A DNA stretch of 32,000 nt. It comes from Xanthomonas campestris pv. campestris str. ATCC 33913. GTDB taxonomy: Bacteria > Pseudomonadota > Gammaproteobacteria > Xanthomonadales > Xanthomonadaceae. Positions within the stretch are counted from its first letter, which is position 1. Each line of letters begins with the position of its first letter. The notes under the pieces are model-generated. The model made no database searches. It was given only the letters and a program-made list of their open reading frames with translations, and was not told the origin of the DNA. This document shows, in pieces, positions 4,860 to 17,430 of the stretch. The stretch is taken from positions 460,325-492,324 of the forward strand of contig NC_003902.1 of the NCBI RefSeq assembly GCF_000007145.1, given 5' to 3'. The translations under genes were made by a program, and so were the position numbers.

Positions 4860-4936
4860 GCGCTCGTAGCTCAGCCGGATAGAGTAGTGGCTTCCGAAGC
4901 CATTGGTCGGGGGTTCGAATCCCTCCGGGCGCACCA
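4860..4936 (+). tRNA. tRNA-Arg (anticodon CCG)
   Basis: I folded a 77-nt cloverleaf by hand. The acceptor is GCGCTCG/CGGGCGC, the D arm GCTC-AGCCGGATA-GAGT and the anticodon arm GTGGC-TTCCGAA-GCCAT (anticodon CCG). The variable loop is TGGTC, the T arm is GGGGG-TTCGAAT-CCCTC, and the CCA end is encoded. Confidence 0.93.
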
Positions 4937-4938
4937 GA
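4914..4938 (+). repeat. attL-like direct repeat (3' end of tRNA-Arg)
   Basis: TTCGAATCCCTCCGGGCGCACCAGA recurs at 17696-17720 as TCCGAATCCCTTCGGGCGCACCAGA (23/25 identical). Confidence 0.75.
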
Positions 4939-4971
4939 TGAACCCTCCGGGACATCCAAGAAAGTCCAAAA

Positions 4972-4995
4972 CCCCCGAGAAATCGGGGGTTTTTG
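4972..4995 (+). terminator. rho-independent terminator after the tRNA (island-borne)
   Basis: Stem CCCCCGA/TCGGGGG with loop GAAA, followed by TTTTTG. Confidence 0.7.
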
Positions 4996-5095
4996 TTGCC
5001 TGAGGTTTTCCTAGGTCCACCATGATCCATTGAAATCCAGGCTCGTAGGGGCATAGATGGGGGCACCAGCCCCCAGTGCGAAAGCGGATGCCCCC

Positions 5096-5492
5096 ATGCC
5101 CCTGAGTGACGCCGCAGTGCGTAACGCAACGCCCGCTGACAAGCCCGTGAGACTGTTCGACGGCGGCGGCTTGTATGTCGAGATCTCGCCGAAAGGCGCC
5201 AAGCTATGGCGATGGAAGTATCGCTTTGGCGGTAAGGAGAAGCGCTTGGCACTGGGGGTCTACCCAGAGGTCAGCCTGGCGGAGGTGCGAGCGCAGCATC
5301 TGGAAGCACGCAAAGTCCTCCGGTCCGGCATTGACCCAGGTGAGAAGAGGAGGGTCGACAGGCTGGTGCGCGTTGATCGGTCCCAGCTCAGCTTTGCAGC
5401 TGTCGCTGCAGAGCTCCTGGCCCTGCATGGCAAGAAGAATTCCGTCCTGACGATGAAGCGCAATGGCAGGATCGTCGAAAAGGACCTCAACC
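5096..5492 (+). pseudogene. P4-type tyrosine integrase, N-terminal arm-binding (DUF4102-like) fragment only
   Basis: MPLSDAAVRNATPADKPVRLFDGGGLYVEISPKGAKLWRWKYRFGGKEKRLALGVYPEVSLAEVRAQHLEARKVLRSGIDPGEKRR is the typical N-terminus of tRNA-associated island integrases. The reading frame is cut at 5492/5493 by the IS terminal repeat. No catalytic domain is present anywhere in the window. Confidence 0.85.
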
Positions 5493-6842
5493 CTGAGGTT
5501 TCCCCACATTTCCTCCTGGCAAATCAATCACTTGCGACGTAATTGCCTGGAAGAAAGTGCGCGCATGGCGCAATCTTCAAGGTGACTAAGCCAGAGAAGG
5601 TTGACGACCATGCGCGCCAGCGAAGTATTGCAGAAGTGCCTGCCCAACTCACTGTCCGGGATGCATGCGTTGCGCGAACGCGCGTTGCTGCATGCGGTCG
5701 AGGCGTTGTTGCACGGACGCAGGCTGACACTGATGGACATCGCACGTTCGTGGCCGAGCGCACTGCGGGTGCGCGCGCCGCTCAAGGCAGTTGATCGCCT
5801 GTTGAGTAATCGCAATTTGCAGGTCGAGCGATCAGTGATCGACCACGAGATGGCAGCACTGGCTGCTGCGCGGCGCGCAGCCGGTAATCGTCATCGACTG
5901 GAGCGATCTGAAGCCAGACAAATCGTGGTGTCTGCTGCGCGCAGCGGTGCCGGTGGGCGGCCGCACGCTTACCTTGCTGGACATGGTAGTGCCAGGAAAG
6001 CAGCAGGGATCGCCTGGTGCAGAAAGACGCTTCTTGCAACAACTGAGGGCACTGGTTCCGGACGATGTTCGCCCGATCCTGGTCACTGACGCCGGCTTCC
6101 GGACACCGTGGTTCCGCGCTGTATCGGCCATGGGCTGGTGTTGGGTTGGGCGACTGCGCGGGCGCACGCAAGTCAAGCCGCAGGACGTGCGGGATGAAGC
6201 AGATCAGTGGATCGACAGCCGGAAACTGCATGTGTTGGCGTCCAATCGTGCATGCGAGTTACCGCCGATGCAGGCCAATCGCAGCGATCCACTCGATTGC
6301 AGGTTGGTGATTTACGCCAAGGCACGGCAAGGGCGCAAACAGTGCAATCGCCGCTCACCCGCCAAAGTCTCGCGTGCGTCATCGAGTCTGAAGGCCGCAG
6401 CGCGCGAGCGCGAGCCTTGGCTCATCGTTGCATCCCCGCAGCTGCAGGCGCCCAGCGCAAAGCAGTTGGTCAATGTGTACGCACGACGGATGCAGATCGA
6501 GCTTGCATTTCGCGATCTGAAATCACATCGCTACGGCCAGGCGCTGGAAGACAGTTTGACCCGACGCGGCGAGCGACTGCAGATCCTGCTGCTGATCAAT
6601 ACGTTGGCTGCATTCGCCAGCTGGTTGGCGGGGCTGGGATGCGAAGCGACCGGTATCGCCCAGTGGCTGTCTCCTCGCAACAGCACACGCAAGCTTTACT
6701 CCACGCTACGCATCGGCCGAGAAGCGCTGGTCAGGCAGTGGCCGATGGAACCCGTCTCACGGGGATAGGGCGCTTGCGCGCACTGCCTGCGGCAGTACGC
6801 GGGCAGATGATGCTTACGGTGTAAAACGTGGGGATACCTTAG
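5493..6842 (+). mobile_element. IS4-family insertion sequence (IS10-like termini), 1350 bp
   Basis: The terminal inverted repeats are CTGAGGTTTCCCCACATTTCC (5493-5513) and the reverse complement of 6822-6842, CTAAGGTATCCCCACGTTTTA. They match at 16/21 positions (16 of the first 19). The element encloses a transposase with the IS4 YREK signature. Confidence 0.85.
5610..6768 (+). pseudogene. IS4-family DDE transposase, frameshifted
   Basis: The N-terminal part is in frame 3 (MRASEVLQKCLPNSLSGMHALRERALLHAVEALLHGRRLTL...RLLSNRNLQVERSVIDHEMA). The continuation is in frame 1 (HWLLRGAQPVIVIDWSDLKPDKSWCLLRAAVPVGGRTLTLLDMVVP...). The frame change lies between the frame-1 stop at 5836-5838 and about 5880. 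The Y-x2-R-x3-E-x6-K motif is YARRMQIELAFRDLK. IS4-family elements do not use programmed frameshifting. Confidence 0.8.
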
Positions 6843-7124
6843 TATCTGGACCGATTGAGGTACTTGTAACAGAGGGGTATCGGTGTGCGTGGCAGCACTG
6901 CATTCGGAAGCGGTATAGCTGTCGCGTTTCGCACGCACCTGGAGCGTGTCCAATGTCCAGCTGTTGAATGCCGGCTCGGAAGTTTGGGGTGATGCAGGAT
7001 CTTGTGCTGACACTGCGTCCTGGTTGAGCGAAGGCGCGGCGAGCAGTGCGGGCGAAGCGAGAGCAGCCGCAAGCGCGAACGCCAGGCGGGAGGGAGCGGA
7101 CGGTGTGGCCCTGGAGGGATGCAT
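6843..7124 (-). pseudogene. TonB-dependent siderophore-type receptor, N-terminal fragment (signal peptide plus start of plug)
   Basis: The minus-strand ATG is at 7124. The fragment reads MHPSRATPSAPSRLAFALAAALASPALLAAPSLNQD...TLDTLQVRAKRDSYTASECSAATHTDTPLLQVPQSVQI. The frame runs straight into the IS terminal repeat at 6842. Confidence 0.75.
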
Positions 7125-7168
7125 GGAAACTCCAACAATGAGCGGGAAGGTCGAGATGTGACTGGCCA

Positions 7169-9304
7169 TCAGAAACGATGGTCCACGGTGAACTCGACGC
7201 GCCTGTCGGCACCCCGCAGCCACTGGGTATCGGTGTAATAAGCCGTTTCGTAGAACGTCTTGTCGAAGGCATTGAAGACGCGGGCGGTCAGTCGGGTGGC
7301 TGGGCGGGCCTGCCAGGAGACCGTGACATCCGTGGTGGCATAGCCCGGAAGTTGCAACGTATTGGCAGTGTCCGCATAGCGCTTTCCGACATACCGAACA
7401 CCCGTGGCGACCGTCCAGTCTGTAGCCACCTGCCAGCTCACCCACGCATTGGCCAAGCGCTCGGCGACGTTGGGCGGCACGTTGCCATCCCGAGAGACCG
7501 CGATGACCGGCGAACCAGTGGTCTCCAGAAAATCTTCGAACTCTGCCTTCAGCACGGTGGCGTTGAGATCCAGCGACCATGCCGGCGCGAAGACCCATGC
7601 CAAGGACGCCTCCACCCCCTTGGACGTTTGTGCGCCCACCTGGACACGTCGGTCCGGGTTCAAGGGGTCGCGGCTAAGCAAACCGGTCTTGCGAATGCGA
7701 TAGGCAGCCAAGGTCCACTCGCCGCCATCAAAGCCCTGTTTGAAGCCAACTTCCACCTGCTTGCCTCTGGATAGATCAAATGCCCCGTTGTTCGGACTGA
7801 TCATTAGCAGACCACTGATCGGGTCAGACGCTTGAGAGAACTGGGCGTAAAGCGTGGACGTTGGCCGGAGTGCAAACACCGTTCCGGTACGCCAGCCGGT
7901 ATTTGAGTAAGTCTTTGAGAACGTCCGCTGCCCGCTGATCAGGTCGGTGCGCTGAACAATGGCACGGTCATGGCGGAGGCCTGCCAAGATGGACCAGCGG
8001 TCGGTCAGCGCCAAACGGTCTTCAAGGAAGAGCGAGTATTGCTCGGCGCTGTTGCGATACCGGGGGATATTCGGCGCGTCGCTAATGAACCGGCCCGGCA
8101 CCGGATTGAACAGGTCCACCGGCCCGGAACTTCCCGAGTAGGTGTTATTGGTGTGCTTGAAGTGGGCTCGGTTGGCATCTACGCCAACGGCAAAGGTGTT
8201 GTCCATGTGGCCAAGACCACCCCGCAACCGCAGCGTGGAGGTCAGACCGGTCTGGTCCTGGTTGTGCGTGATCTGCGTGTTGTCGGAGCGGTCGATCAGC
8301 CCGGTTGTCGCGTTATAGACGTAGGCCTCGGCATTGCGCCAATCGCGCTGGCTGTCGACCTGGTAAAGGCGCGTGCGCCATTCAACCGTATTGTTGGGCG
8401 TCCACACCGCGTCGAGCTGGCTCCAACGGTCTCGGAACCGGATGACGCTGTCAGAGACGTTGTAGTTTTCGTGGCGCAACGCATTCAGCTGTTGGCCGTC
8501 CACCAATGGCGTGCCGAAGTAACGCATGGGGCGTTGATAGCCTTCTGCATGCGTCAGTGTGAATTGCAGGTCCGGCCGCGCTTGCCAGAGCAATGCGCCC
8601 GAGAAGGTGGCATCACCGTTGTAGCCACGATCCACCCAGCCGCTACTGTAATTGCCACTGACATCCAGCCGGTAGGCGAGGTTGGAGCTCAACGCGCCCC
8701 CGCTGCCGACCCCCAGTCGTGCCGTGTCCTGGCTGCCCACGGTAGCTCGAAGCTCGTTTTCCACCGGGCCAAAGTGAGGCTTCTTGGGCACGATGTTGAC
8801 TACGCCCCCGATCGCGCCGTCGCCATAGATGACGGAGGCCGGGCCACGCAACACTTCGATGCGTTCGATCGACCACGTGTCAAAAGGGAACGTGACTCCC
8901 ACGCCGCCGTACTGTCGGATGCCGTCATACAGACGCATGACCGACGCACTGTCGGTAAAACCACGGCTGGATAGGGCACTCAGGCCATTGCCTGGATGAG
9001 GCATCGCGCTGATGGCACCGGCCCAGGTGATAGCATTGTTTAGGTTGGCATTGCCGCGTGCGTTCAGTTGCTCACGCAAGATAACGGTCAGGCTTGCAGG
9101 AGTATCGAGCACGCTCAGACCGAGTGCCGAACCGGTCGAACTGATGTCAGTCAATGTGCCTGCGCGATCGTCGACGACCCGGACCGTGTCGAGCGTTCGG
9201 GGCGCTGGGCCTTGTTGTGCCAAGACTCCAGTGGAATGCAGCAGGAATGGAACGAGAGCCAAGGCTAGGCGTCCCGGACGGAGGACCGAGGGAAAGGAAT
9301 GCAT
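7169..9304 (-). CDS. TonB-dependent receptor, siderophore/metallophore type
   Basis: I set the start at ATG 9304 (MHSFPSVLRPGRLALALVPFLLHSTGVLAQQ signal peptide). The TonB-box-like sequence is TLDTVRVV, and the plug motifs are SSRGF...RLYDGIR...IERIEVLRGPASVIYG. A long beta-barrel ends in the terminal aromatic residue (...FTVDHRF). Confidence 0.9.
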   Translation of the reverse strand: MHSFPSVLRPGRLALALVPFLLHSTGVLAQQGPAPRTLDTVRVVDDRAGTLTDISSTGSALGLSVLDTPASLTVILREQLNARGNANLNNAITWAGAISAMPHPGNGLSALSSRGFTDSASVMRLYDGIRQYGGVGVTFPFDTWSIERIEVLRGPASVIYGDGAIGGVVNIVPKKPHFGPVENELRATVGSQDTARLGVGSGGALSSNLAYRLDVSGNYSSGWVDRGYNGDATFSGALLWQARPDLQFTLTHAEGYQRPMRYFGTPLVDGQQLNALRHENYNVSDSVIRFRDRWSQLDAVWTPNNTVEWRTRLYQVDSQRDWRNAEAYVYNATTGLIDRSDNTQITHNQDQTGLTSTLRLRGGLGHMDNTFAVGVDANRAHFKHTNNTYSGSSGPVDLFNPVPGRFISDAPNIPRYRNSAEQYSLFLEDRLALTDRWSILAGLRHDRAIVQRTDLISGQRTFSKTYSNTGWRTGTVFALRPTSTLYAQFSQASDPISGLLMISPNNGAFDLSRGKQVEVGFKQGFDGGEWTLAAYRIRKTGLLSRDPLNPDRRVQVGAQTSKGVEASLAWVFAPAWSLDLNATVLKAEFEDFLETTGSPVIAVSRDGNVPPNVAERLANAWVSWQVATDWTVATGVRYVGKRYADTANTLQLPGYATTDVTVSWQARPATRLTARVFNAFDKTFYETAYYTDTQWLRGADRRVEFTVDHRF

Positions 9305-9360
9305 GGGTGGTTCCAGGTGGAATAGCGCCGTGGGCGCAAGCGGGCGTTGTTTGAGAACGA

Positions 9361-9765
9361 CTACGCCGCCATCGGAGGGCCACGTGGACGATGCGCGGTG
9401 CTGCTGGCGAACCGCGGGACATTCGACGCACAAACGTCACTGCCGGCTGAGGCATGAGTGGGAGCGGCACGCCTCCAGGTCCAGTCATGCGGGGTGAGAA
9501 GAAGCGCTGCCAGCAGGCAGTGCTCGCAAGCAGCGTCGTGGGGCAGGGCGTGCTTGCCTAATTGGATTTGCCCTTCGCGACTACCCAGGGCCAGCGTGGC
9601 CGGTTTGGTTGCCAGCTGGTGGCCCGTCTCGCACATGGCCTCCATGACCATCTGCTGCGGCAGCGATTCAACCCACCGGCTGACAACCGGCGCAACCACC
9701 AGCAGCAAGGCCGCCATGGCGGCCCAGCTGCGGATAGCGTGGGCAAGGAATCTTCGAAGAGCCAT
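9361..9765 (-). CDS. DUF2946-like small membrane protein (copy 1)
   Basis: The start is ATG 9765 (MALRRFLAHAIRSWAAMAALLLVVAPVVSR...). It has an N-terminal TM helix, the motif HDAACEHCLL and a C-terminal RGPP. This pattern is as I recall it for DUF2946 proteins that accompany TBDRs. It lies 56 nt upstream of the TBDR and 23 nt downstream of the SOD gene. Confidence 0.6.
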   Translation of the reverse strand: MALRRFLAHAIRSWAAMAALLLVVAPVVSRWVESLPQQMVMEAMCETGHQLATKPATLALGSREGQIQLGKHALPHDAACEHCLLAALLLTPHDWTWRRAAPTHASAGSDVCASNVPRFASSTAHRPRGPPMAA

Positions 9766-9788
9766 GGGCGTGGGCGAGGATTGGCCGG

Positions 9789-10493
9789 TCAGCGCTTGGC
9801 TGCAGCGCCAAAGCGGGCGTTGACCTCGGTCCAGTTGACCACCGACCACCACGCCTTGATGTAGTCGGCCCGCTTGTTTTGGTAATGCAGGTAATACGCG
9901 TGTTCCCACATATCCAGGGCCAGCAGTGGCGTGCCGCGGTCGGACACGACATCCATCAATGGGTTGTCCTGATTGGACGTGGTGGTGATCGCCAGTGAGC
10001 CGTCTGGTTTGACGATCAACCAGGCCCATCCCGAGCCGAAAATTTTTGTGGCCGCCTCGGAGAACTTGGTTTTGAAGGCCTCTTCGGAGCCGAACGACTG
10101 TGCCAGTTTTGCCTTGAGGGCCGGCGATATCGTTCCTCCCTGGCCTGCGGGTGCCATCAGCGTCCAGAACAGGCTGTGGTTGTAATGGCCGCCGGCATTG
10201 TTGCGGACCGCCGCGTCGTACAGAGAGATATGGGCCTGGATGTCTTCGACAGACGTGGTCGACAACGCTGGGTAGTCTTCGACCTTGTTGTTGAGGTTAT
10301 CGACGTAGGCCTTGTGATGGCGTGCGTGATGGATCTCCATCGTTTGCGTGTCGATGGCCGGTTCCAATGCATTGGTCGCGTAGGGCAGCGCCGGTAGCGA
10401 GAAGGCGACTTTAGGTGCGTCGGCTGCGACTGCAATATTTGAAAGTGCCAGCAGGGCGCTGAGGCCTAACGCTTTAATGGATCGGCAATTCAT
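9789..10493 (-). CDS. Fe/Mn-family superoxide dismutase, SodA (Mn)-type signatures, with N-terminal Sec-type signal peptide
   Basis: The start is ATG 10493, with GGAG about 11 nt upstream. The signal peptide is MNCRSIKALGLSALLALSNIAVA, followed by ADAPKV. The mature part aligns by eye with E. coli SodA from its first residues: FSLPALPYATNALEP, MEIHHARHH, NNAGGHYNHSLFW, TSNQDNPL, LDMWEHAYYLHYQNKRADYIKAWWSVVNW. Confidence 0.92.
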   Translation of the reverse strand: MNCRSIKALGLSALLALSNIAVAADAPKVAFSLPALPYATNALEPAIDTQTMEIHHARHHKAYVDNLNNKVEDYPALSTTSVEDIQAHISLYDAAVRNNAGGHYNHSLFWTLMAPAGQGGTISPALKAKLAQSFGSEEAFKTKFSEAATKIFGSGWAWLIVKPDGSLAITTTSNQDNPLMDVVSDRGTPLLALDMWEHAYYLHYQNKRADYIKAWWSVVNWTEVNARFGAAAKR

Positions 10494-10977
10494 GGTGTTT
10501 TGCTCCGATTTCAAGAAGGACGAACAGGGTGCTAGCAGGCGTTTGGCATGAAAGCACAAGCGCACGGCGGACTGTGTCGGTCCGTTGGAGTCAGGAACTC
10601 TGGTCCTCAATTAAGAGCATCTAACAAAACTCCTGCGCAGCCGCCAGGCGAGCGCGGCCGGTGCTCGGAATCCTCATGTACCACTCGTACACTGCGGTTC
10701 CTAGGCTCCTTCCGCGCCCACCTGACGGCTGTTCGCTATGTTTTGTCAGCCGCTCTAAATCGTAAGGACTGCAGTGCACATGCACTTGCACGCGTCAACC
10801 TCACAACGTGCGACGACGCTTCGCCCTTGCTCGCGCAGGAGCAAATCGTTCAAACCGGGCACTCGACGGCTCAGTCTCGTCCTAGCAGATCCGCTACACC
10901 TCAACTTGGCAGCCATACAAGCCAATAGCCGCCAGCCCAAAGCAAAGACGGAAAAGATGCCGCACCGGAACGTTGTG

Positions 10978-11466
10978 TCAGGCGAGAACGACGGAAGGGG
11001 GGCCGCGGGCACCCAAGGTGCTTGAGAGCAGCGATAGGCGCGTATTAGCGAGCCTTGCTAATCGCCCGAAGCTGCCAGGGTAGCCAGTGAGGAGCAGTAG
11101 CACTGCAATCAACAGACTGATCAAACGGGCAGCAATCACGCAGTAATCACAGTCGACGCCCATGTCATGCTCGGCATGTGGGCCGGGCATTGGGCGTGCA
11201 TTTGCCGTCTCATCGTCTGCGTCGTGATGGGGATAGACGTTGGATGAAATTGAAGCCGTCTCCAGCACGTCTACCGCATCGTGGTGATGCTGGTGGCGAG
11301 GCGTCTGCTTAAAACGCGAGCCATGCTGATGCACTACGTTGAGCGCTGAGGAGGCCGATGCTGCGGACTGCTTCAGGGCGCGACTTACCAACGGCGCAAT
11401 GAGCATCAAGAGAATGGCGAGCCATGCGCAGGCAAGCAACCAGTGGTGGCGTCGTGAACGGTGCAC
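10978..11466 (-). CDS. DUF2946-like small membrane protein, His-rich (copy 2)
   Basis: The 162-aa protein has an N-terminal TM helix (WLLACAWLAILLMLIAPLVSR). Its His/Asp-rich segment is HQHGSRFKQTPRHQHHHD...YPHHDADDE...HAEHD. It also has CDYC, a second hydrophobic segment and a C-terminal RGPP. The architecture matches 9361-9765. Confidence 0.6.
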   Translation of the reverse strand: MHRSRRHHWLLACAWLAILLMLIAPLVSRALKQSAASASSALNVVHQHGSRFKQTPRHQHHHDAVDVLETASISSNVYPHHDADDETANARPMPGPHAEHDMGVDCDYCVIAARLISLLIAVLLLLTGYPGSFGRLARLANTRLSLLSSTLGARGPPSVVLA

Positions 11467-12167
11467 ATTCCGATTCTAATGGAAGCGGCCGACGAATGGT
11501 CTGTGGGCCAAGATCGTCGAAGGGCTGCGACAAAGTGTCGCAATGTGTGTTGGAGCAACGCCTGCCGCAAGGTCTGTCTGCCTTTCGCAAAGGTTTCAGG
11601 TAGCGAATACGCCAATGCCACATGCTCCATGCGCCGAGTAACCCACGGACGAGGGCGCGATGGTGAGCGCGTGTGTTGCTAGGCTTCGCTCACCGAGCCT
11701 CTGCTCGACACGTAGCATGTAGCCAACCAGTGTTTGGCGTAGTCGTACGCGGCGTTTCGGTCAGTGAAGGCAACACCGGATATGGATTGACGATGAAGTG
11801 TGATGCCGCCGGGCTTGGAAATAGGAGTTCGGGTAGGAATTTACCGTCAGCCGGTGAGAAGTGCGCCGTTAGCAGATAATCGCCCACGTGACGAGTTGCG
11901 GTAACGCCCAAGAGCATTTTTCCTTGATGGTGCCCAGCACCGTTGGTTGTTCGAAACATCACAAAAAAAGCCGCAGCCAGGCGCTGCTTGGTGGCGGATG
12001 ATCATGGACGACAAGAGTCCAACAGGCAGTCGGTGTTAGGCGAGCTGGACTTTAGGTATTTCCCTCAGCAGCAGCGCCGGGAGAGGCGGTTGATCCGTCC
12101 CCAATATGAGGAGCGCACGTTTGCTCTCGCCGACTATTTCCAGTCGCCACTCGAAATACTGAAACAA

Positions 12168-12186
12168 ATTGTTACTATGTAACAAT
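12168..12186. promoter_or_regulatory. perfect 19-bp palindrome, candidate Fur-family (Zur-like) operator
   Basis: ATTGTTAC-TAT-GTAACAAT lies in an A/T-rich context, 22 nt upstream of the TBDR ATG at 12208. Its core TGTTA-N5-TAACA has the same spacing as the gamma-proteobacterial Zur consensus GAAATGTTATANTATAACATTTC (recalled from memory). Confidence 0.45.
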
Positions 12187-12207
12187 AATTCTTGATGGGG
12201 AGTGTGC

Positions 12208-14823
12208 ATGTTGCGTAGTCGAACTCTTGCGGTGACGGGAATGCTGTCAACGAGTCTTGCAGTGGCACTGCCAGCCTTCGCTGAAGATCGGGAAGCGAAC
12301 TCGTCTACGCTGGTAGACAAGGAATTCGAGGTCATTACGGTGGGTAGCCGCTTCGGCGGTCGCTCGATGCTGCAGTCGCCAACGCCAGTGGACCTGATTA
12401 CCAGAGAGGAGATGGAGCGCAACGGGCGCGTCGATCTGCTGCAGATGCTCAAGGTCGAAGTGCCCAGCTTCAACATCCCGCGCCCGATTGCATCGGGTGC
12501 CGGCGACTACCTCATGCCGCCGTCTTTACGGGGCCTGGGGCCGGGTGAGGTGCTGGTGCTGATCAATGGCAAGCGTCGCCACACGTCGGCAGATCTCAAC
12601 TCAAGCAATGGTGTTGGACGCGGCGATATTTCGATCGACTTCAACGCCATCCCGTCCCTGGCCTTATCGCGCGTGGAAGTCCTGCGCGATGGCGCAGCGG
12701 CGCAATATGGGTCCGATGCAATCTCCGGCGTCATCAACCTCACCTTGGACCGCTCGCTGGAGACCGTGGCGCACGCCACTTACCTTGCTACCAGCAAGGG
12801 CGACGGTCAAACGCATGAGGTGGCCGCAGCGACGGGATTCCCCATCGGCAGGGAAGGCGTCGTGCGGCTCACTGCGGCCGTGCAAGACATCGCAGCCAGC
12901 AACCGGGCGCGTCCCGACACTCGGCAACAGTATTTCGGCGCCAACGCTGCTGGTGCGCCGGTGATGCCCTCCGGCAACTATGGCTCCGGGACAGGGCTGA
13001 CCGCGCCCAATGGCAGGCTTGATCCCCTCGAAGCCGGTTTTGACCGGGACGTGTTCTTCCAGGGCACCCAGCCAAGCACCAATCGGCAGCTGTTCTACAA
13101 CTTAGTGACGCCCCTGTCTGATGCGGTGGAGTTCTACTCCTTCGGCGGCCACAGCCGCCTGGATGGGGATATCACTTACTTCTTCCGGCGTGCGGGTCAG
13201 GACGAGACGGTACGTGCCATCTATCCGGATGGCTACAGCCCGATGCTGGATACACGCATCGACAACACATCGGTTGCGCTGGGTCTGCGAGGCCATGCGC
13301 TTGCAGGATTCGGTTGGGACCTATCCACGGTCTACGGGCGCAATACGCAGGACCTGTTTTACGCCAATAGCGTCAATGTCTCGCTCGGCGCCGGTTCGCC
13401 AACACGTTTCTATCGCAGCGGCGCCGACTTTGATCAATGGACAACCAATCTCGATCTGAATCGAGAGCTCGCCCTGGGCAGCTTCAGCCCACTGCGCTTG
13501 GCATTAGGCGCAGAGCATCGCTACGAGCAGTACCGGCTGTTGTCCGGCGCCGAGGCTGGCTACATTAACGGGGGCGTGCCCATCCTGGACGGGCCCAACG
13601 CGGGAAGGCCTGCGATTCCCGGCTCACAGCCGGGCCCAAGCAATGGCCCGGACGACAACGCGCTGCTGGACCGGAACAGTCAGGCGATCTACGTGGAAGT
13701 CGAGCAATCGCCTAGCGACCGCCTGCTGCTGAGCGCTGCCGCCCGCCATGAGCGCTACTCCGATTTCGGCAATACGACGAACGTCAAAATCGCGAGTCGT
13801 TTTCAGCTGAGCGAACAATGGGCGCTACGGGGCTCGTACAACACTGGCTTCCGTGCTCCAGCGCTGGCGCAGTCTGGTTACAACGCGTCCAATACGTTGA
13901 TTCTCAATGGGGCGCAGGCGATCGTGCGTGTTGCCGCAGTGGGAACCGAGGCGGCGCAGCTGGCCGGGGCGACCGATCTCAAGCCTGAAACGTCGAACAA
14001 CATTTCGCTTGGCACGGTATTTCAGGAAGGCAACTGGTCAGCCTCACTTGATGCTTATCAGATCAAGGTCCGCGACCGCATTGCGATTTCCTCGACGTTC
14101 CAGGACCCGCACCTGACCAACTACCTTGCGGCCAATGGACAGTCGGGATTCGCGGCGATTTCGTTTTTGACCAACGCTGTGGACACCGTCACGCGTGGCA
14201 TGGATCTGGTCATCAATTATCGGCGACAATTTGAACTTGGCGGAGCACTGACCGGCACCTTTGCTGGCAATTACAACACCACTGATTTTGATCGGATTGC
14301 TGGCACGCCTGCACCAATTGCTGCGCTGGGCATCACCACGCCGCTGTTCGACCTGACCCAGCAGTTGCGGTACTCAGACAGTCAGCCTCGCGACAAGCTG
14401 ATGCTCAACCTGAACTATACGCATGGCCGCTTCTCGGCAAACCTGACAAACACCCGCTATGGCCAAGTCTCCAGCGTGGCCCTGACTGGCAAGAACGCAG
14501 CGCAGGTTGCAGTGCTCACGCCGGGCTACGACACGCGCTTGGTGCCAGCCTCGGCCACCACCTACGACATCATCCAGACCTTTTCGCCAAAGATCATCAC
14601 CGATCTGGAACTCTCAGCACAGGTGACGCCGGCCCTGCGTGTGAGCATCGGGGCGCAGAACCTGCTTGATGTGTATCCGGACGAGAATATCGCGTCCACT
14701 GCGGCCAGTGTTGCAGTGGGGACCAATGGCTCGGACAACGCAGGCACGCATCCGTATAACGCCACATCGCCGTTCGGCTTTACGGGTCGTGCGTTATTTA
14801 TGCGCGCCGGTCTTACGTTTTAA
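12208..14823 (+). CDS. TonB-dependent receptor (non-siderophore/oligomer type plug)
   Basis: I chose ATG 12208 because GGGGAG lies 5-6 nt upstream. The signal peptide is MLRSRTLAVTGMLSTSLAVALPAFA, followed by EDRE. The TonB-box-like sequence is FEVITVG. The plug reads LRGLGPGEVLVLINGKRR...VEVLRDGAAAQYGSDAISGVINL, and the C-terminus is ...RAGLTF. Confidence 0.9.
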   Translation: MLRSRTLAVTGMLSTSLAVALPAFAEDREANSSTLVDKEFEVITVGSRFGGRSMLQSPTPVDLITREEMERNGRVDLLQMLKVEVPSFNIPRPIASGAGDYLMPPSLRGLGPGEVLVLINGKRRHTSADLNSSNGVGRGDISIDFNAIPSLALSRVEVLRDGAAAQYGSDAISGVINLTLDRSLETVAHATYLATSKGDGQTHEVAAATGFPIGREGVVRLTAAVQDIAASNRARPDTRQQYFGANAAGAPVMPSGNYGSGTGLTAPNGRLDPLEAGFDRDVFFQGTQPSTNRQLFYNLVTPLSDAVEFYSFGGHSRLDGDITYFFRRAGQDETVRAIYPDGYSPMLDTRIDNTSVALGLRGHALAGFGWDLSTVYGRNTQDLFYANSVNVSLGAGSPTRFYRSGADFDQWTTNLDLNRELALGSFSPLRLALGAEHRYEQYRLLSGAEAGYINGGVPILDGPNAGRPAIPGSQPGPSNGPDDNALLDRNSQAIYVEVEQSPSDRLLLSAAARHERYSDFGNTTNVKIASRFQLSEQWALRGSYNTGFRAPALAQSGYNASNTLILNGAQAIVRVAAVGTEAAQLAGATDLKPETSNNISLGTVFQEGNWSASLDAYQIKVRDRIAISSTFQDPHLTNYLAANGQSGFAAISFLTNAVDTVTRGMDLVINYRRQFELGGALTGTFAGNYNTTDFDRIAGTPAPIAALGITTPLFDLTQQLRYSDSQPRDKLMLNLNYTHGRFSANLTNTRYGQVSSVALTGKNAAQVAVLTPGYDTRLVPASATTYDIIQTFSPKIITDLELSAQVTPALRVSIGAQNLLDVYPDENIASTAASVAVGTNGSDNAGTHPYNATSPFGFTGRALFMRAGLTF

Positions 14824-14873
14824 GCACACGACGACGATGCTTGAAGCTCCACACCTGACAGAGGACGACTTGA

Positions 14874-16169
14874 ATGGGCAATCGCAGAGGATTTTTGAAG
14901 ATGTCCGCTTCGCTGGCTGCCGCGCCCCTGATTCCTGAGTCGTCTGCTGTGAGCAATGAACTAGACATTCCTGTTTCCAACAAACGCCCGCATGAGCTTG
15001 CACGCGACGAAGCCCACTGGCGCGCGGTAGGTAGACTCTATTCAATCCAAGAGGAAATCATCAACCTTGAGCACGGCTATTGGGGACAGATGTCCATCCC
15101 AGTAGAGCAGGCGTTGGCTCGCCACACGCACAGAGTCAATCGCGAATTGTCGTGGTATGCACGCCGTGAGTACGATCGCGATTTTCTGAAAGCGCGGGCG
15201 GCAGTTGCCGATGCTCTCGGTGTCAGCGTCGAGGAGCTGATGCTCACCCGCAACGCGACTGAGTCGTTCGTCAATCTGATCACCCAGTATGACGAATTGA
15301 GTTCCGGTAACGCGATCCTGTGGGCAGATGCCGACTACCCCGAGTTCAAGCGCATGATGTCCTGGCTCGCAGAGTCGCGGCAGGTAAGGGGAACGATGCT
15401 GAGTCTCCCGGCTGCGGGAACCGATGAGGATTACATAAGGATCTATCGAGAAGCCTTTGATGCGCTTCCGGATCTCAAGCTGATGTTGCTTACTCATGTC
15501 AGCAATCAACACGGTCTAGTGCTGCCAGTGCGAGAGATCGCGGCTATTGCCAAGTGCCGCGGCATCCACGTCATTTGCGATTGCGCACAATCCTGGGGGT
15601 TGCTCGACTTCACCCTTGACGACTTGAACGTTGACTGGGCTGTCTTCAATCTCCACAAGTGGATCGGCTCGCCGGTAGGTGTCGGGGCCCTTTACATGCG
15701 GCACGGAACACTGGTGCCTGTGAGGCCATTTCCAGGAGAGGACAGCAGTGATACGGATGTGGCCAATCGCGTGCACTTGGCAACATCTGACTTCGCTTCA
15801 TTTCTTACTGTGCCTGATGCTCTCGCTTTTCACCGCGCTATTGGCGGCGCAAATAAACAAGCGCGGCTGAACTACCTCCGCGAAGCATGGGTCGCCAGCC
15901 TTGAAGGGTCGTCGGCGGTTGAGGTATTAGGCGCGACCGGATCTAAAAACGCATCGGGAATGGGGGCATTCCGCCTGCGCGGACAGACGTCGAAGGTGCA
16001 AGTGAGTGCACTCCAGACTCGCCTTGAGACAGAATTCCGCATCTTTACAGTGGTTCGAAACGATCTTGCTAGCGGAGCCTGTATCCGGGTAACTCCACAG
16101 GTATTTACTCCGCTTGAGCATGTGCAGGCGCTTGCTGACGCGATCGTTGAGATTTCGGTTACCGGCTAA
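14874..16169 (+). CDS. class-V aminotransferase-fold PLP-dependent enzyme with twin-arginine (Tat) signal
   Basis: The N-terminus MGNRRGFLKMSASLAAAPLIP matches the Tat consensus S/T-R-R-x-F-L-K almost perfectly. The class-V fold is supported by the PLP-lysine context VFNLHKWIGSPVGVG and by overall similarity to isopenicillin-N-epimerase/cysteine-desulfurase-like proteins. GAGGA lies 8 nt upstream, and the TBDR stop is 50 nt away. Confidence 0.85.
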   Translation: MGNRRGFLKMSASLAAAPLIPESSAVSNELDIPVSNKRPHELARDEAHWRAVGRLYSIQEEIINLEHGYWGQMSIPVEQALARHTHRVNRELSWYARREYDRDFLKARAAVADALGVSVEELMLTRNATESFVNLITQYDELSSGNAILWADADYPEFKRMMSWLAESRQVRGTMLSLPAAGTDEDYIRIYREAFDALPDLKLMLLTHVSNQHGLVLPVREIAAIAKCRGIHVICDCAQSWGLLDFTLDDLNVDWAVFNLHKWIGSPVGVGALYMRHGTLVPVRPFPGEDSSDTDVANRVHLATSDFASFLTVPDALAFHRAIGGANKQARLNYLREAWVASLEGSSAVEVLGATGSKNASGMGAFRLRGQTSKVQVSALQTRLETEFRIFTVVRNDLASGACIRVTPQVFTPLEHVQALADAIVEISVTG

Positions 16170-16327: not shown

Positions 16328-16591
16328 GTGAAGAAACGTTTTACTGACGAGCAGGTCATCGGCTTTCTGCGCGAAGCCGAAAGCGGCGTCGCCATCAAGG
16401 ACCTGTGCCGGCGGCATGGCTTCAGCGAGGCCTCGTACTACCTGTGGCGCAGCAAGTTCGGTGGGATGAGCGTGCCCGATGCCAAGCGGCTCAAGGACCT
16501 CGAGTCCGAGAACGCGCGGCTGAAGAAGTTGCTGGCCGAGCAGTTGTTCGAGAACGACCTGATCAAGGATGCACTGCGAAAAAAGTGGTGA
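16328..16591 (+). CDS. IS3-family transposase OrfA (HTH)
   Basis: (M)KKRFTDEQVIGFLREAESGVAIKDLCRRHGFSEASYYLWRSKFGGMSVPDAKRLKDLESENARLKKLLAEQ is IS407-like. I prefer the GTG 16328 start because GAGGAG lies 7 nt upstream. The ORF track starts at TTG 16322. Confidence 0.85.
   Translation: MKKRFTDEQVIGFLREAESGVAIKDLCRRHGFSEASYYLWRSKFGGMSVPDAKRLKDLESENARLKKLLAEQLFENDLIKDALRKKW
16579..16585 (+). promoter_or_regulatory. programmed -1 ribosomal frameshift heptamer A AAA AAG
   Basis: In the orfA zero frame the sequence is CGA AAA AAG TGG TGA. The heptamer AAAAAAG lies two codons before the orfA stop, which is the classic IS3-family arrangement. Confidence 0.8.
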
Positions 16592-17430
16592 GCGCACCGG
16601 CGCGTCGGACGCTGGTGCGCGAATGGATCGGGCGTGGTGCCAGCGAGCGTCGTGCGTTGGCAGTGATCGGCATGAGCGCCAGTGCACTGCGGTATTGCCC
16701 GCGCGAAGATCGCAATGGCGAACTGCGCGAACGCATCTGTGCGTTGGCACATCGCCATCGCCGCTATGGCGTGGGAATGATCTATCTCAAATTGCGGCAA
16801 GAAGGGCGCATCGTGAACTACAAGCGTGTGGAACGGTTGTACCGCGAGCAGCAGCTGCAAGTGCGCCGCCGCAAGCGCAAGAAGGTCCCAATAGGCGAGC
16901 GTCAACCGCTGCTGCGGCCATCGCAGGCCAACCAGGTGTGGTCGATGGACTTTGTGTTCGACCGCACCGCCGAAGGCCGGGTGATCAAGTGTCTGGTGAT
17001 CGTGGACGATGCAACCCACGAAGTGGTCGCCATCGAGGTGGAGCGCGCGATCTCCGGGCACGGGGTGACGCGCGTGCTGGACCGACTGGCGCACAGTCGC
17101 GGTTTGCCGAAGGTGATCCGCACTGACAACGGCAAGGAGTTTTGCGGTAAGGCGATGGTCGCCTGGGCGCATGCCCGTAATGTGCAACTACTGCTCATCC
17201 AGCCAGGCAAACCGAACCAGAACGCCTACGTCGAATCCTTCAACGGCCGACTGCGCGACGAATGCCTCAACGAGCACTGGTTCCCGACGTTACTGCACGC
17301 GCGCACCGAAATCGAACGCTGGCGACGCGAATACCACGAGGACCGACCCAAGAAAGCAATCGGCGGCATGACGCCGGCTGCGTATGCCCAACATCTGGCA
17401 AACACCGATATCATCAACCCCGGACTCTAA
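16579..17430 (+). CDS. IS3-family transposase OrfB (DDE integrase domain), expressed as an OrfAB fusion by -1 frameshift
   Basis: The frame is -1 relative to orfA. After the slip it reads KKVVSAPARRTLVREWIG...WSMDFVFD...IRTDNGKEF...NAYVESFNGRLRDECLN, a typical rve/DDE domain. Confidence 0.85.
   Translation, partial: KKVVSAPARRTLVREWIGRGASERRALAVIGMSASALRYCPREDRNGELRERICALAHRHRRYGVGMIYLKLRQEGRIVNYKRVERLYREQQLQVRRRKRKKVPIGERQPLLRPSQANQVWSMDFVFDRTAEGRVIKCLVIVDDATHEVVAIEVERAISGHGVTRVLDRLAHSRGLPKVIRTDNGKEFCGKAMVAWAHARNVQLLLIQPGKPNQNAYVESFNGRLRDECLNEHWFPTLLHARTEIERWRREYHEDRPKKAIGGMTPAAYAQHLANTDIINPGL

Follow-up and report, generated by a model that had tools for sequence, protein, structure and literature searches.

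An island-borne cluster in Xanthomonas campestris pv. campestris with CruR-type upstream reading frames, a CrtA-like TonB-dependent receptor and an exported Mn-type superoxide dismutase: a putative copper-starvation operon

A cluster of co-directed genes from Xanthomonas campestris pv. campestris (Xcc) ATCC 33913, contained in a stretch of 32,000 nucleotides (nt) of contig NC_003902.1 (positions 460,325 to 492,324; this whole stretch is hereafter the window, and all positions are counted from its first letter), is probably an island-borne and partly degraded copper-starvation operon of the CruR-CrtA(-CrpH) type with a built-in, exported Mn-type superoxide dismutase (SOD). The cluster consists of two open reading frames (ORFs) of the DUF2946 family, here called cruR1 and cruR2, an SOD gene (sod), a gene for a TonB-dependent receptor (TBDR) that resembles the importer CrtA, and the stump of a second TBDR gene. 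In an earlier note on this DNA it was stated that no system of such composition had been described, which is wrong for its backbone, as cruR-crtA-crpH operons were described between 2022 and 2026 (PMC9426467, PMC12914433, PMC13038864). As a system the cluster is not of a new type, and what the window contains is a degraded example; the features that look new are the exported Mn-SOD as a recurrent operon member and the tandem of two CruR ORFs in one cluster.

Organization of the cluster

The components of the cluster, in the direction in which they would be transcribed, are as follows (lengths of proteins in amino acids, aa).

cruR1 (first DUF2946 ORF), 10978-11466, minus strand: 162 aa, with 13 His.
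cruR1-sod spacer, 10494-10977, minus strand: 484 nt.
sX9 small RNA (sRNA) copy, 10676-10751, plus strand: antisense to the cruR1-to-sod direction; Rfam RF02228.
sod, 9789-10493, minus strand: exported Mn-type SOD (predicted) of the Fe/Mn family, 234 aa from an ATG preceded by GGAG.
cruR2 (second DUF2946 ORF), 9361-9765, minus strand: 134 aa, directly upstream of the TBDR gene.
cruR2-TBDR spacer, 9305-9360, minus strand: 56 nt, C-rich and G-poor; candidate region for Rho loading and attenuation.
crtA-like TBDR gene, 7169-9304, minus strand: 711 aa, putative copper-chelate importer.
N-terminal stump of a second TBDR gene, 6840-7124, minus strand: 95 codons, cut by an insertion sequence (IS) of the IS4 family.

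The five co-directed minus-strand ORFs and the gaps between them (exactly 484, 23, 56 and 44 nt) had been recognized in the earlier note and were recovered unchanged, and the short spacings would be compatible with a shared transcript, as had been suggested there. The family assignments made in the same place, namely two DUF2946 proteins, an Fe/Mn SOD and a TBDR, were all borne out by profile searches over Pfam thresholds. While cruR1, sod, cruR2 and the gene for the 711-aa TBDR are all intact ORFs, the clearly intact unit in the window is sod-cruR2-crtA. In all ten complete Xcc chromosomes inspected the cluster has the same neighbours and retains sod, the 711-aa TBDR gene and both cruR ORFs intact, and a protein identical to the SOD is indexed in 1024 blocks of a public assembly collection; further IS insertions are found near the cluster in some Xcc genomes.

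Two CruR-type upstream reading frames

Both DUF2946 ORFs of the window are predicted to be members of the CruR family, whose upstream ORFs (uORFs) encode copper-sensing arrest peptides. CruR is the name given to Bp2923, an upstream ORF of Bordetella pertussis (Roy et al., PMC9426467). It has been demonstrated that the ribosome is stalled by the nascent CruR peptide at RAPP, a motif near the C-terminus, and that copper sensed through its CXXC motif relieves this stall, which allows Rho termination before the downstream TonB-dependent transporter gene; the RAPP-type motif is placed about 45 (+/- 1-2) residues after the CXXC and a few residues before the stop codon (PMC9426467).

In the window, cruR1 and cruR2 match Pfam DUF2946 (PF11162) at 38.3 and 31.4 bits, respectively, over a cut-off of 23.7 bits and with matches that reach the end of the profile. 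The cruR1 product has CDYC at residue 106 and RGPP at residue 154, with 44 residues intervening and 5 residues left to the stop, and the cruR2 product has CEHC at residue 80 and RGPP at residue 128, again with 44 residues intervening and with 3 residues to the stop, as in Bp2923. Both ORFs are assigned to CruR because the CXXC and the R-x-P-P motif occur at the canonical spacing, so that the two DUF2946 proteins are better regarded as putative regulatory uORFs of the kind described in B. pertussis (PMC9426467) than as accessory components of the envelope. RGPP represents a variant of RAPP with G replacing A, and every Xanthomonadaceae copy seen reads [AP]RGPP; the CXXC is invariant among the aligned CruR homologues. 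A hydropathy scan located hydrophobic segments at residues 8-31 and 108-130 of cruR1 and at residues 10-32 of cruR2, the N-terminal segment being preceded by a basic N-terminus in both.

cruR1, which in the window precedes only the spacer and sod, shares 36-45% identity with the cruR genes at the head of the loci of X. oryzae, Stenotrophomonas and X. cucurbitae and of the loci L177 and L102, with HAEHDMGVDC[ED]YC and LGARGPP as conserved blocks, and cruR1-type genes head TBDR-PepSY_TM operons in relatives. cruR2, which lies 56 nt upstream of the TBDR gene, has a counterpart in X. cucurbitae (L176 9732-10136) in which all 134 codons are kept at 51% amino-acid identity and the CEHC and PRGPP blocks are intact; the adjoining spacers there measure 23 nt between sod and cruR2, the same as in the window, and 54 nt between cruR2 and the TBDR gene (56 nt in the window). 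In the public gene records of ten Xcc genomes and of X. cucurbitae this second ORF is uncalled, the sod-TBDR interval being left empty.

A CrtA-like receptor and its link to copper

The TBDR appears to be CrtA-like and is a putative copper-chelate importer. It consists of Plug and TonB_dep_Rec_b-barrel domains and scores over the cut-off of TIGR01783. Among solved proteins the one closest to it is B. pertussis CrtA (9RVQ/9RVX), matched over its full length at E 5.8e-80, the next solved relative following at 8.6e-37; the depositing paper of 9RVQ/9RVX identified the protein as CrtA (formerly BfrG), a TonB-dependent copper-chelate importer. The essential His358 of CrtA aligns with His347 of the window protein. 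With respect to the CrtA pocket as a whole (Y130, W265, E337, Q356, H358, R395), E and H are identical in the TBDR, W is replaced by F, Q by I and R by H, and the pocket Tyr is present but one aligned position off. Because the TBDR is CrtA-like and conserves the essential His, the metal, which the earlier note had left unspecified as a metal or metallophore, is proposed here to be copper.

Members of the published CrtA subfamily have lengths of 707-911 aa, with cruR upstream in more than 40% and PepSY_TM downstream in more than 75% of the loci. The 711-aa TBDR falls inside this length range and has cruR upstream, and no PepSY_TM gene follows it in the window. Similar arrangements recur elsewhere: when metagenome contigs were scanned with sequences of the cruR1 type, 78 loci were obtained; at about 50 of these cruR directly precedes a TBDR gene whose product is 75-81% identical to the window TBDR, and at one of them (L102) the TBDR, 79% identical, is followed by a PepSY_TM gene, with an intact integrase nearby. 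An annotated DUF2946-TBDR-PepSY operon with a TBDR that matches the window gene is found on a megaplasmid of Comamonas, and a search of a plasmid collection returned no plasmid with the whole module, only this canonical Comamonas operon.

The 56-nt spacer between cruR2 and the TBDR gene has a C content of 0.45 and a G content of 0.18 (0.40 and 0.21, respectively, when the first 100 nt of the TBDR gene are included), and no stable structure was predicted in it relative to shuffled sequence (z = 0.18). When stem-loops that sequester the ribosome-binding site (RBS) in the manner of CutF were sought at either junction, no fold was better than shuffled sequence. The cruR2 spacer, being C-rich and unstructured, would therefore suit the loading of Rho and not an RBS-hiding stem-loop of the CutF type.

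For the TBDR of the Stenotrophomonas-type operon (L093 3451-5490), no solved relative was obtained at E 1e-20 or better, and BLAST gave no match to the window TBDR. Therefore, operons that are headed by CruR and contain SOD use at least two unrelated types of TBDR.

An exported Mn-type superoxide dismutase

The SOD is predicted to be an exported Mn-type enzyme with a cleavable signal peptide. Its Pfam matches are Sod_Fe_N (E 4e-28) and Sod_Fe_C (E 4e-41), and the NCBIfam model for Mn enzymes scores 232.6 bits against 186.5 for the Fe model, both being under their equivalog cut-offs. The metal-ligand motifs IHH, NHS and DMWEH (His/His/Asp/His) are all found, together with a Mn-type signature comprising AGGH, the F in SLFW, and NQD. 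All of the best solved relatives are Mn-type enzymes (MnSODs), the top matches 6GSB, 6GSC and 5A9G being, as we take it, MnSODs of Aeromonas salmonicida and Sphingobacterium sp. T2; a periplasmic MnSOD is present in Aeromonas salmonicida, and Sphingobacterium sp. T2 has extracellular ones.

Compared with the solved MnSODs, the N-terminus of the window protein is longer by about 29 residues, and by inspection the n-region of this extension is basic, its residues 8-23 form a hydrophobic core, and it has a site of the cleavage type, AVA|AD. Twelve homologues carry equivalent N-terminal extensions of differing sequence, the extension-bearing proteins coming from Xanthomonas, Stenotrophomonas, Pseudoxanthomonas, Luteimonas, Orrella, Brevundimonas, Alkanindiges, Azomonas and Cyanobium. 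The Mn-type residues and the predicted signal peptide thus agree with the idea, already put forward in the earlier note, of an exported SOD that would need neither Cu nor Zn. The class of exported MnSODs is uncommon, not new: signal-peptide MnSODs ("pMnSOD") have been predicted in Acinetobacter, for which a SodC-like periplasmic role has been proposed (PMC8918354). SodA1 and SodA2 of S. maltophilia have been treated as cytosolic (PMC6479884).

In X. albilineans the gene of the orthologous exported SOD lies directly after genes for an mntR-like repressor and an Nramp (mntH) Mn importer. This mntR-mntH-sod arrangement (L092 4652-7708) fits a manganese cofactor, and indicates that the SOD is attachable to different metal-homeostasis loci.

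Recurrent linkage of the dismutase to copper-uptake genes

The neighbourhoods of 11 SODs that are 65-100% identical to the window protein were compared. The association of such an SOD with DUF2946 and TBDR genes, for which a neighbourhood check had been advised, is recurrent, as it was found at 7 of the 11 sampled loci in the following arrangements.

Xcc: cruR1-sod-cruR2-crtA.
X. cucurbitae: cruR1-PepSY_TM-sod-cruR2-crtA, with copper chaperone genes (PCuAC and SCO1) adjoining.
X. oryzae and a relative (L177): cruR-TBDR-PepSY_TM-sod-TBDR2.
Two Stenotrophomonas strains: cruR-TBDR-PepSY_TM-sod.
Luteimonas abyssi: TBDR-PepSY_TM-sod, with a PCuAC gene nearby.

The sampled loci are not phylogenetically independent and amount to roughly five lineages with three gene orders. 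The steadiest adjacency is that of a PepSY_TM (CrpH-type) gene followed by sod, which is present in six loci with gaps of 58-115 nt and involves two PepSY_TM subtypes with a mutual identity of only 35-39%. The window and X. cucurbitae are collinear, at 76% over 3268 nt, between a point inside sod and the end of the TBDR gene. As a background set, 80 distant SOD homologues (at most 64% identity, mostly from Bacteroidota, among the matches listed) were considered; an ORF with CruR motifs was present at none of these 80 loci, and a TBDR or PepSY-like gene occurred within 6 kb at five of them, none being clearly operonic.

The novelty that the earlier note had attached to the composition of the cluster is upheld in part, since the backbone is known, as indicated above, and the SOD and the tandem second cruR are unmentioned in the papers on CruR, CrtA and CrpH. 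In the main text of these papers (PMC9426467, PMC12914433, PMC13038864) the SOD is not mentioned as an operon member, no SOD turned up in the supplements consulted for the CruR and CrtA papers (figures apart), and a targeted literature search found no report of an SOD in such operons.

The cruR1-sod spacer and the island context

In X. cucurbitae the interval between cruR1 and sod holds a PepSY_TM gene, and the corresponding interval of the window is the 484-nt spacer, in which no remnant of crpH or PepSY_TM was found. This spacer is probably the scar of a rearrangement that removed crpH. In the earlier note the 484 nt were taken simply to set the His-rich paralogue apart from the remaining genes; the distance is correct, and the simple separation is not, as a PepSY_TM gene occupies this place in X. 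cucurbitae and an antisense sX9 copy is present there in the window. The sX9 match is full-length (RF02228, 91.2 bits against a gathering score of 44, E 1.6e-15); it is also present in another Xcc genome, and at the gathering score none was found in the related loci of other species. In Xcc, sX9 occurs in multiple copies, some of which are raised about 16-fold on copper shock (PMC10924375). The copy in the spacer could hinder read-through into sod, or could be a repeat left by rearrangement.

On the transcribed strand the spacer is G-rich (C/G 0.85) except in its last ~120 nt (C/G 1.4-1.8), and with this ratio over most of its length it is mostly not rut-like. No sigma-70 consensus promoter was found in positions 6600-12300, including the spacer, although this is a weak test. 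The sole sequence match of the spacer is a 76-nt piece, overlapping sX9, that resembles the region downstream of the second TBDR gene of X. oryzae. An ORF of 117 aa (L091 9997-10350) follows that TBDR gene in X. oryzae; it has a signal-peptide-like start and no Pfam match, and the stretch similar to the 76-nt piece sits within it.

The cluster is placed in an island whose other elements are listed below.

tRNA-Arg(CCG) and N-terminal fragment of a tyrosine integrase, 4860-5542, plus strand: island boundary.
IS4-family element, 5496-6839, plus strand: truncates the second TBDR gene and the integrase gene.

The tRNA-Arg(CCG) gene itself occupies 4860-4936 (ARAGORN and Rfam), and the integrase fragment is a 161-aa ORF at 5057-5542 (plus strand) that matches Arm-DNA-bind_3 at E 8.7e-26 and is cut by the IS4 element. 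The latter matches NCBIfam transpos_IS4_2 (E 2.9e-80), and its limits are inverted repeats of 16 nt (5496-5511 and 6824-6839) that differ at 2 positions. The TBDR stump has no significant family match, shares 50% identity over 52 aa with the N-terminus of the X. oryzae TBDR encoded after the SOD, and loses its homology at 6840, exactly where the IS4 element starts. On the far side of the island an IS3-family transposase gene is found at 16405-17430 (plus strand). G+C amounts to 0.57-0.62 in the island and to 0.65-0.70 in its flanks, with a drop from 0.70 to 0.60 at the tRNA and integrase. No repeat of the tRNA-Arg 3' end of 14 nt or longer that might serve as an att site occurs in the window, so that the far boundary is set only by G+C and the IS3 element. 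Taken together, the tRNA-Arg gene, the integrase fragment, the IS4 and IS3 elements and the lowered G+C make horizontal acquisition plausible, as had been surmised in the earlier note.

Divergent from cruR1, the plus strand at 12202-16169 encodes a TBDR of 873 aa and a class-V aminotransferase with a TAT signal. The aminotransferase is weakly similar to PvdN, a periplasmic pyoverdine-tailoring enzyme (74 bits against a cut-off of 650), and the pair adjoins the cluster across Xcc genomes and was not found beside cruR loci elsewhere. The divergent intergenic region of 735 nt contains an unannotated terminator-like hairpin with a run of seven T at 11973-11987 (minus strand), about 500 nt upstream of cruR1.

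A model for a copper-starvation operon with its own dismutase

In the model that we propose, transcription would start upstream of cruR1, and possibly also inside the 484-nt spacer, and the transcript would run through sod and cruR2 to the crtA-like TBDR gene. CruR would be produced as a short exported peptide, the nascent chain of which stalls the ribosome at the C-terminal RGPP. At low copper the stalled ribosome would shield the C-rich RNA downstream, Rho would be unable to load, and the importer would be made, along with CrpH in those relatives that have crpH; copper bound to the CXXC would release the stall, and Rho would then terminate before the TBDR gene. The CrtA-like TBDR would import chelated Cu(II), and at low copper the Mn-SOD would be secreted to the periplasm alongside the importer.

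The secreted Mn-SOD may have two roles, which are not exclusive. It could stand in for Cu,Zn SodC enzymes that cannot be metallated, and it could clear superoxide arising from periplasmic copper reduction (by CrpH) or from re-oxidation of Cu(I). On general chemical grounds, such reductases, and Cu(I) itself, may hand electrons to oxygen. CrpH has been proposed to be a heme-dependent periplasmic copper reductase, although this role has been described as speculative (PMC13038864). Xcc has two Cu,Zn SODs, XCC0190 and XCC0191, both of which are copper-induced. As these enzymes would lack their cofactor under copper starvation, copper sparing is a candidate role for the Mn-SOD, and the gene content suggests a swap of the copper-dependent periplasmic SOD for a Mn-dependent one at low copper. 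The metal-sparing substitute for SodC that the earlier note had considered would, read in this way as copper sparing, gain in both precision and plausibility. Given that Xcc keeps both Cu,Zn SODs, the Mn enzyme would be a conditional alternative and not a permanent replacement.

Beyond the window, a broader reading may be entertained, although only tentatively. In some Xanthomonadaceae an exported Mn-SOD may have been wired into a CruR-controlled copper-starvation operon, typically right after crpH, in such a way that low copper would elicit import, reduction and a copper-independent periplasmic SOD, which would replace Cu,Zn SodC and clear the superoxide generated in the reduction step. In Xcc and X. 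cucurbitae this would take the form of a two-tier arrangement, with a second CruR attenuator that gates the importer separately from the SOD. If true, this would be the first copper-sparing SOD switch in bacteria, as far as our literature search found.

Evidence against the model and alternative explanations

Several observations weigh against the interpretation of the cluster as a copper-starvation operon with a co-regulated SOD. Just two to three of the six conserved CrtA pocket residues are retained in the TBDR; the cluster resides in a decaying island, with an IS4 insertion, truncation of both a TBDR and the integrase, and loss of crpH; and the tables consulted of the Xcc copper-shock transcriptome (PMC10924375) list sodA, sodC2 and yojM, not this SOD. 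Linkage is also incomplete, as 4 of the 11 exported SODs are unlinked (those of X. albilineans, a Pseudoxanthomonas strain, an Orrella strain and a Lysobacteraceae metagenome-assembled genome) and an SOD is present in just 2 of about 50 informative cruR1-type metagenome loci. Regarding the SOD itself, the cruR1-sod spacer is long, mostly G-rich on the transcribed strand and occupied by an antisense sRNA, so that sod may have its own promoter and escape CruR control, and cruR2, located downstream of sod, cannot attenuate it. The coupling of cruR1 to sod in the window is therefore doubtful and, with cruR1 perhaps uncoupled and cruR2 downstream, the regulation of the SOD is better argued from the intact loci of other species. 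Lastly, DUF2946 also includes CutF, which has the opposite regulatory sign, and the sign of regulation is consequently read here from context alone; the CruR sign is favoured because the target is an importer and because no RBS-hiding stem-loop was predicted.

Some of these observations would be explained if the SOD were an independent, self-promoted exported enzyme, acting for example against the plant oxidative burst, with no coupling to the adjoining copper-uptake genes. In favour of such independence are the spacer, which is not rut-like and contains the antisense sRNA, the 4 of 11 homologues that stand alone or beside mntH, the absence of an SOD from most cruR operons and the wide occurrence of exported MnSODs that have no such neighbours. 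This is nevertheless unlikely in view of the linkage, which was seen at 7 of 11 loci and extends over two CrpH subtypes and no fewer than three gene orders, the short gaps (23 nt between sod and cruR2 in two species, 58-115 nt between PepSY_TM and sod) and, on a weak test, the lack of a sigma-70-like promoter in the spacer.

It could also be argued that the module answers copper excess, with CruR acting like CutF, such that copper-induced stalling would switch the genes on and the SOD would counter copper-driven superoxide. The existence of CutF as a DUF2946 member of opposite sign, the unusually His-rich cruR1 and the rise of sX9 copies and of other SODs on Xcc copper shock are consistent with this notion, which is nonetheless quite improbable: the gene after cruR2 is that of a CrtA-type importer, joined by crpH in relatives, and both count among the copper-starvation genes of B. 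pertussis; at neither junction is an RBS-sequestering stem-loop predicted; the cruR2 spacer has the C-rich, unstructured character that suits Rho; and the motif spacing is that of CruR.

A system for iron or another metal is very improbable. In that case the TBDR would be a siderophore receptor, as its match to TIGR01783, a siderophore-receptor subfamily model, might imply, the PepSY_TM proteins would be ferrisiderophore reductases, as are characterized PepSY_TM proteins such as FoxB, and the SOD would protect against the redox cycling that reduced iron undergoes; several residues of the CrtA pocket are indeed not conserved. Against this, CrtA is by a wide margin the closest of the solved relatives and its essential His is retained, two CXXC-bearing CruR ORFs are present, PCuAC/SCO1 copper chaperone genes flank the X. 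cucurbitae and Luteimonas loci, and no site resembling a Fur box was found above the level of shuffled sequence (the best match being 11/19).

Finally, that the window copy is a non-functional remnant, its genes being decaying passengers of an old island after the loss of crpH and the IS4 insertion, is hardly credible, for although the second TBDR gene and the integrase gene are truncated, IS4 and IS3 elements are present, crpH is missing and extra IS insertions occur nearby in some Xcc genomes, cruR1, sod, cruR2 and the 711-aa TBDR gene are intact ORFs, the SOD recurs unchanged in the 1024 collection blocks, 10 of 10 inspected Xcc chromosomes keep sod, the TBDR gene and both cruR ORFs, and the sod-cruR2-crtA unit is intact in X. 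cucurbitae.

Relation to known systems

A CruR-CrtA-type copper-starvation operon thus remains the preferred interpretation, and the closest described system is the B. pertussis operon cruR-crtA(bfrG)-crpH(bp2921). Both share a DUF2946 uORF that has an export segment, a CXXC and, about 45 residues further on and near the stop, a C-terminal R-x-P-P motif; in both, this uORF lies directly before the gene of a CrtA-like transporter, and relatives of the window locus also have PepSY_TM. Unlike the B. pertussis operon, the window has two CruR ORFs, RGPP in place of RAPP, a cruR2-TBDR spacer of 56 nt as compared to 162 nt, an embedded exported Mn-SOD, no crpH and a CrtA ligand pocket that is partly conserved; in X. 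cucurbitae, moreover, the order is permuted to cruR1-crpH-sod-cruR2-crtA.

A second relevant system is cutFOG of Rhodobacter capsulatus (CutF; PMC9973294, bioRxiv 10.1101/2025.02.05.636593), with which the window would have in common an exported nascent peptide, a Cys-based copper site, a proline-rich arrest motif and, by analogy, post-transcriptional control of the next gene. In cutFOG, however, it is copper that induces stalling, which turns on a detoxifying multicopper oxidase via an RBS-hiding stem-loop, whereas in the window it is an importer gene that would be controlled, and a stem-loop of this kind is not predicted.

With regard to SODs, metal-sparing switches are known for iron, as exemplified by the Fur/RyhB SodB-to-SodA switch and by the Fur-regulated fagA-fumC-orfX-sodA operon of Pseudomonas aeruginosa, and for copper deficiency, as exemplified by the Sod1-to-Sod3 switch of Candida albicans and the CSD-to-FSD1 switch of plants. 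The arrangement proposed here may be analogous to these, in that under scarcity of one metal an SOD using another metal would be expressed together with acquisition genes. It would differ from them in that the known switches are transcriptional or sRNA-based, the copper examples being eukaryotic, while here a putative CruR arrest-peptide/Rho attenuator would operate for the bacterial periplasm. The predicted features of the enzyme, that is, a Mn-type SOD of the Fe/Mn family with a cleavable, non-lipoprotein signal peptide, resemble those of Acinetobacter pMnSOD (PMC8918354), but none of the pMnSOD-type enzymes has been reported inside a copper-regulated uptake operon.

Conclusions

Copper acquisition by bacteria, unlike detoxification of this metal, has been worked out only recently, and the cluster described here offers functional annotation for Xanthomonas genes that are labelled only "DUF2946", "TonB-dependent siderophore receptor" or "superoxide dismutase", while also bringing to light cruR2, a conserved regulatory ORF (as predicted) that had gone uncalled. 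The six loci in which an exported Mn-SOD directly follows crpH give rise to a testable idea about the superoxide cost of periplasmic copper reduction, and another testable idea is that bacteria practise copper sparing among SOD isozymes, as do fungi and plants. For plant pathogens, which encounter both copper sprays and the oxidative burst of the host, the balance between Cu,Zn and Mn enzymes in the periplasm could affect fitness.

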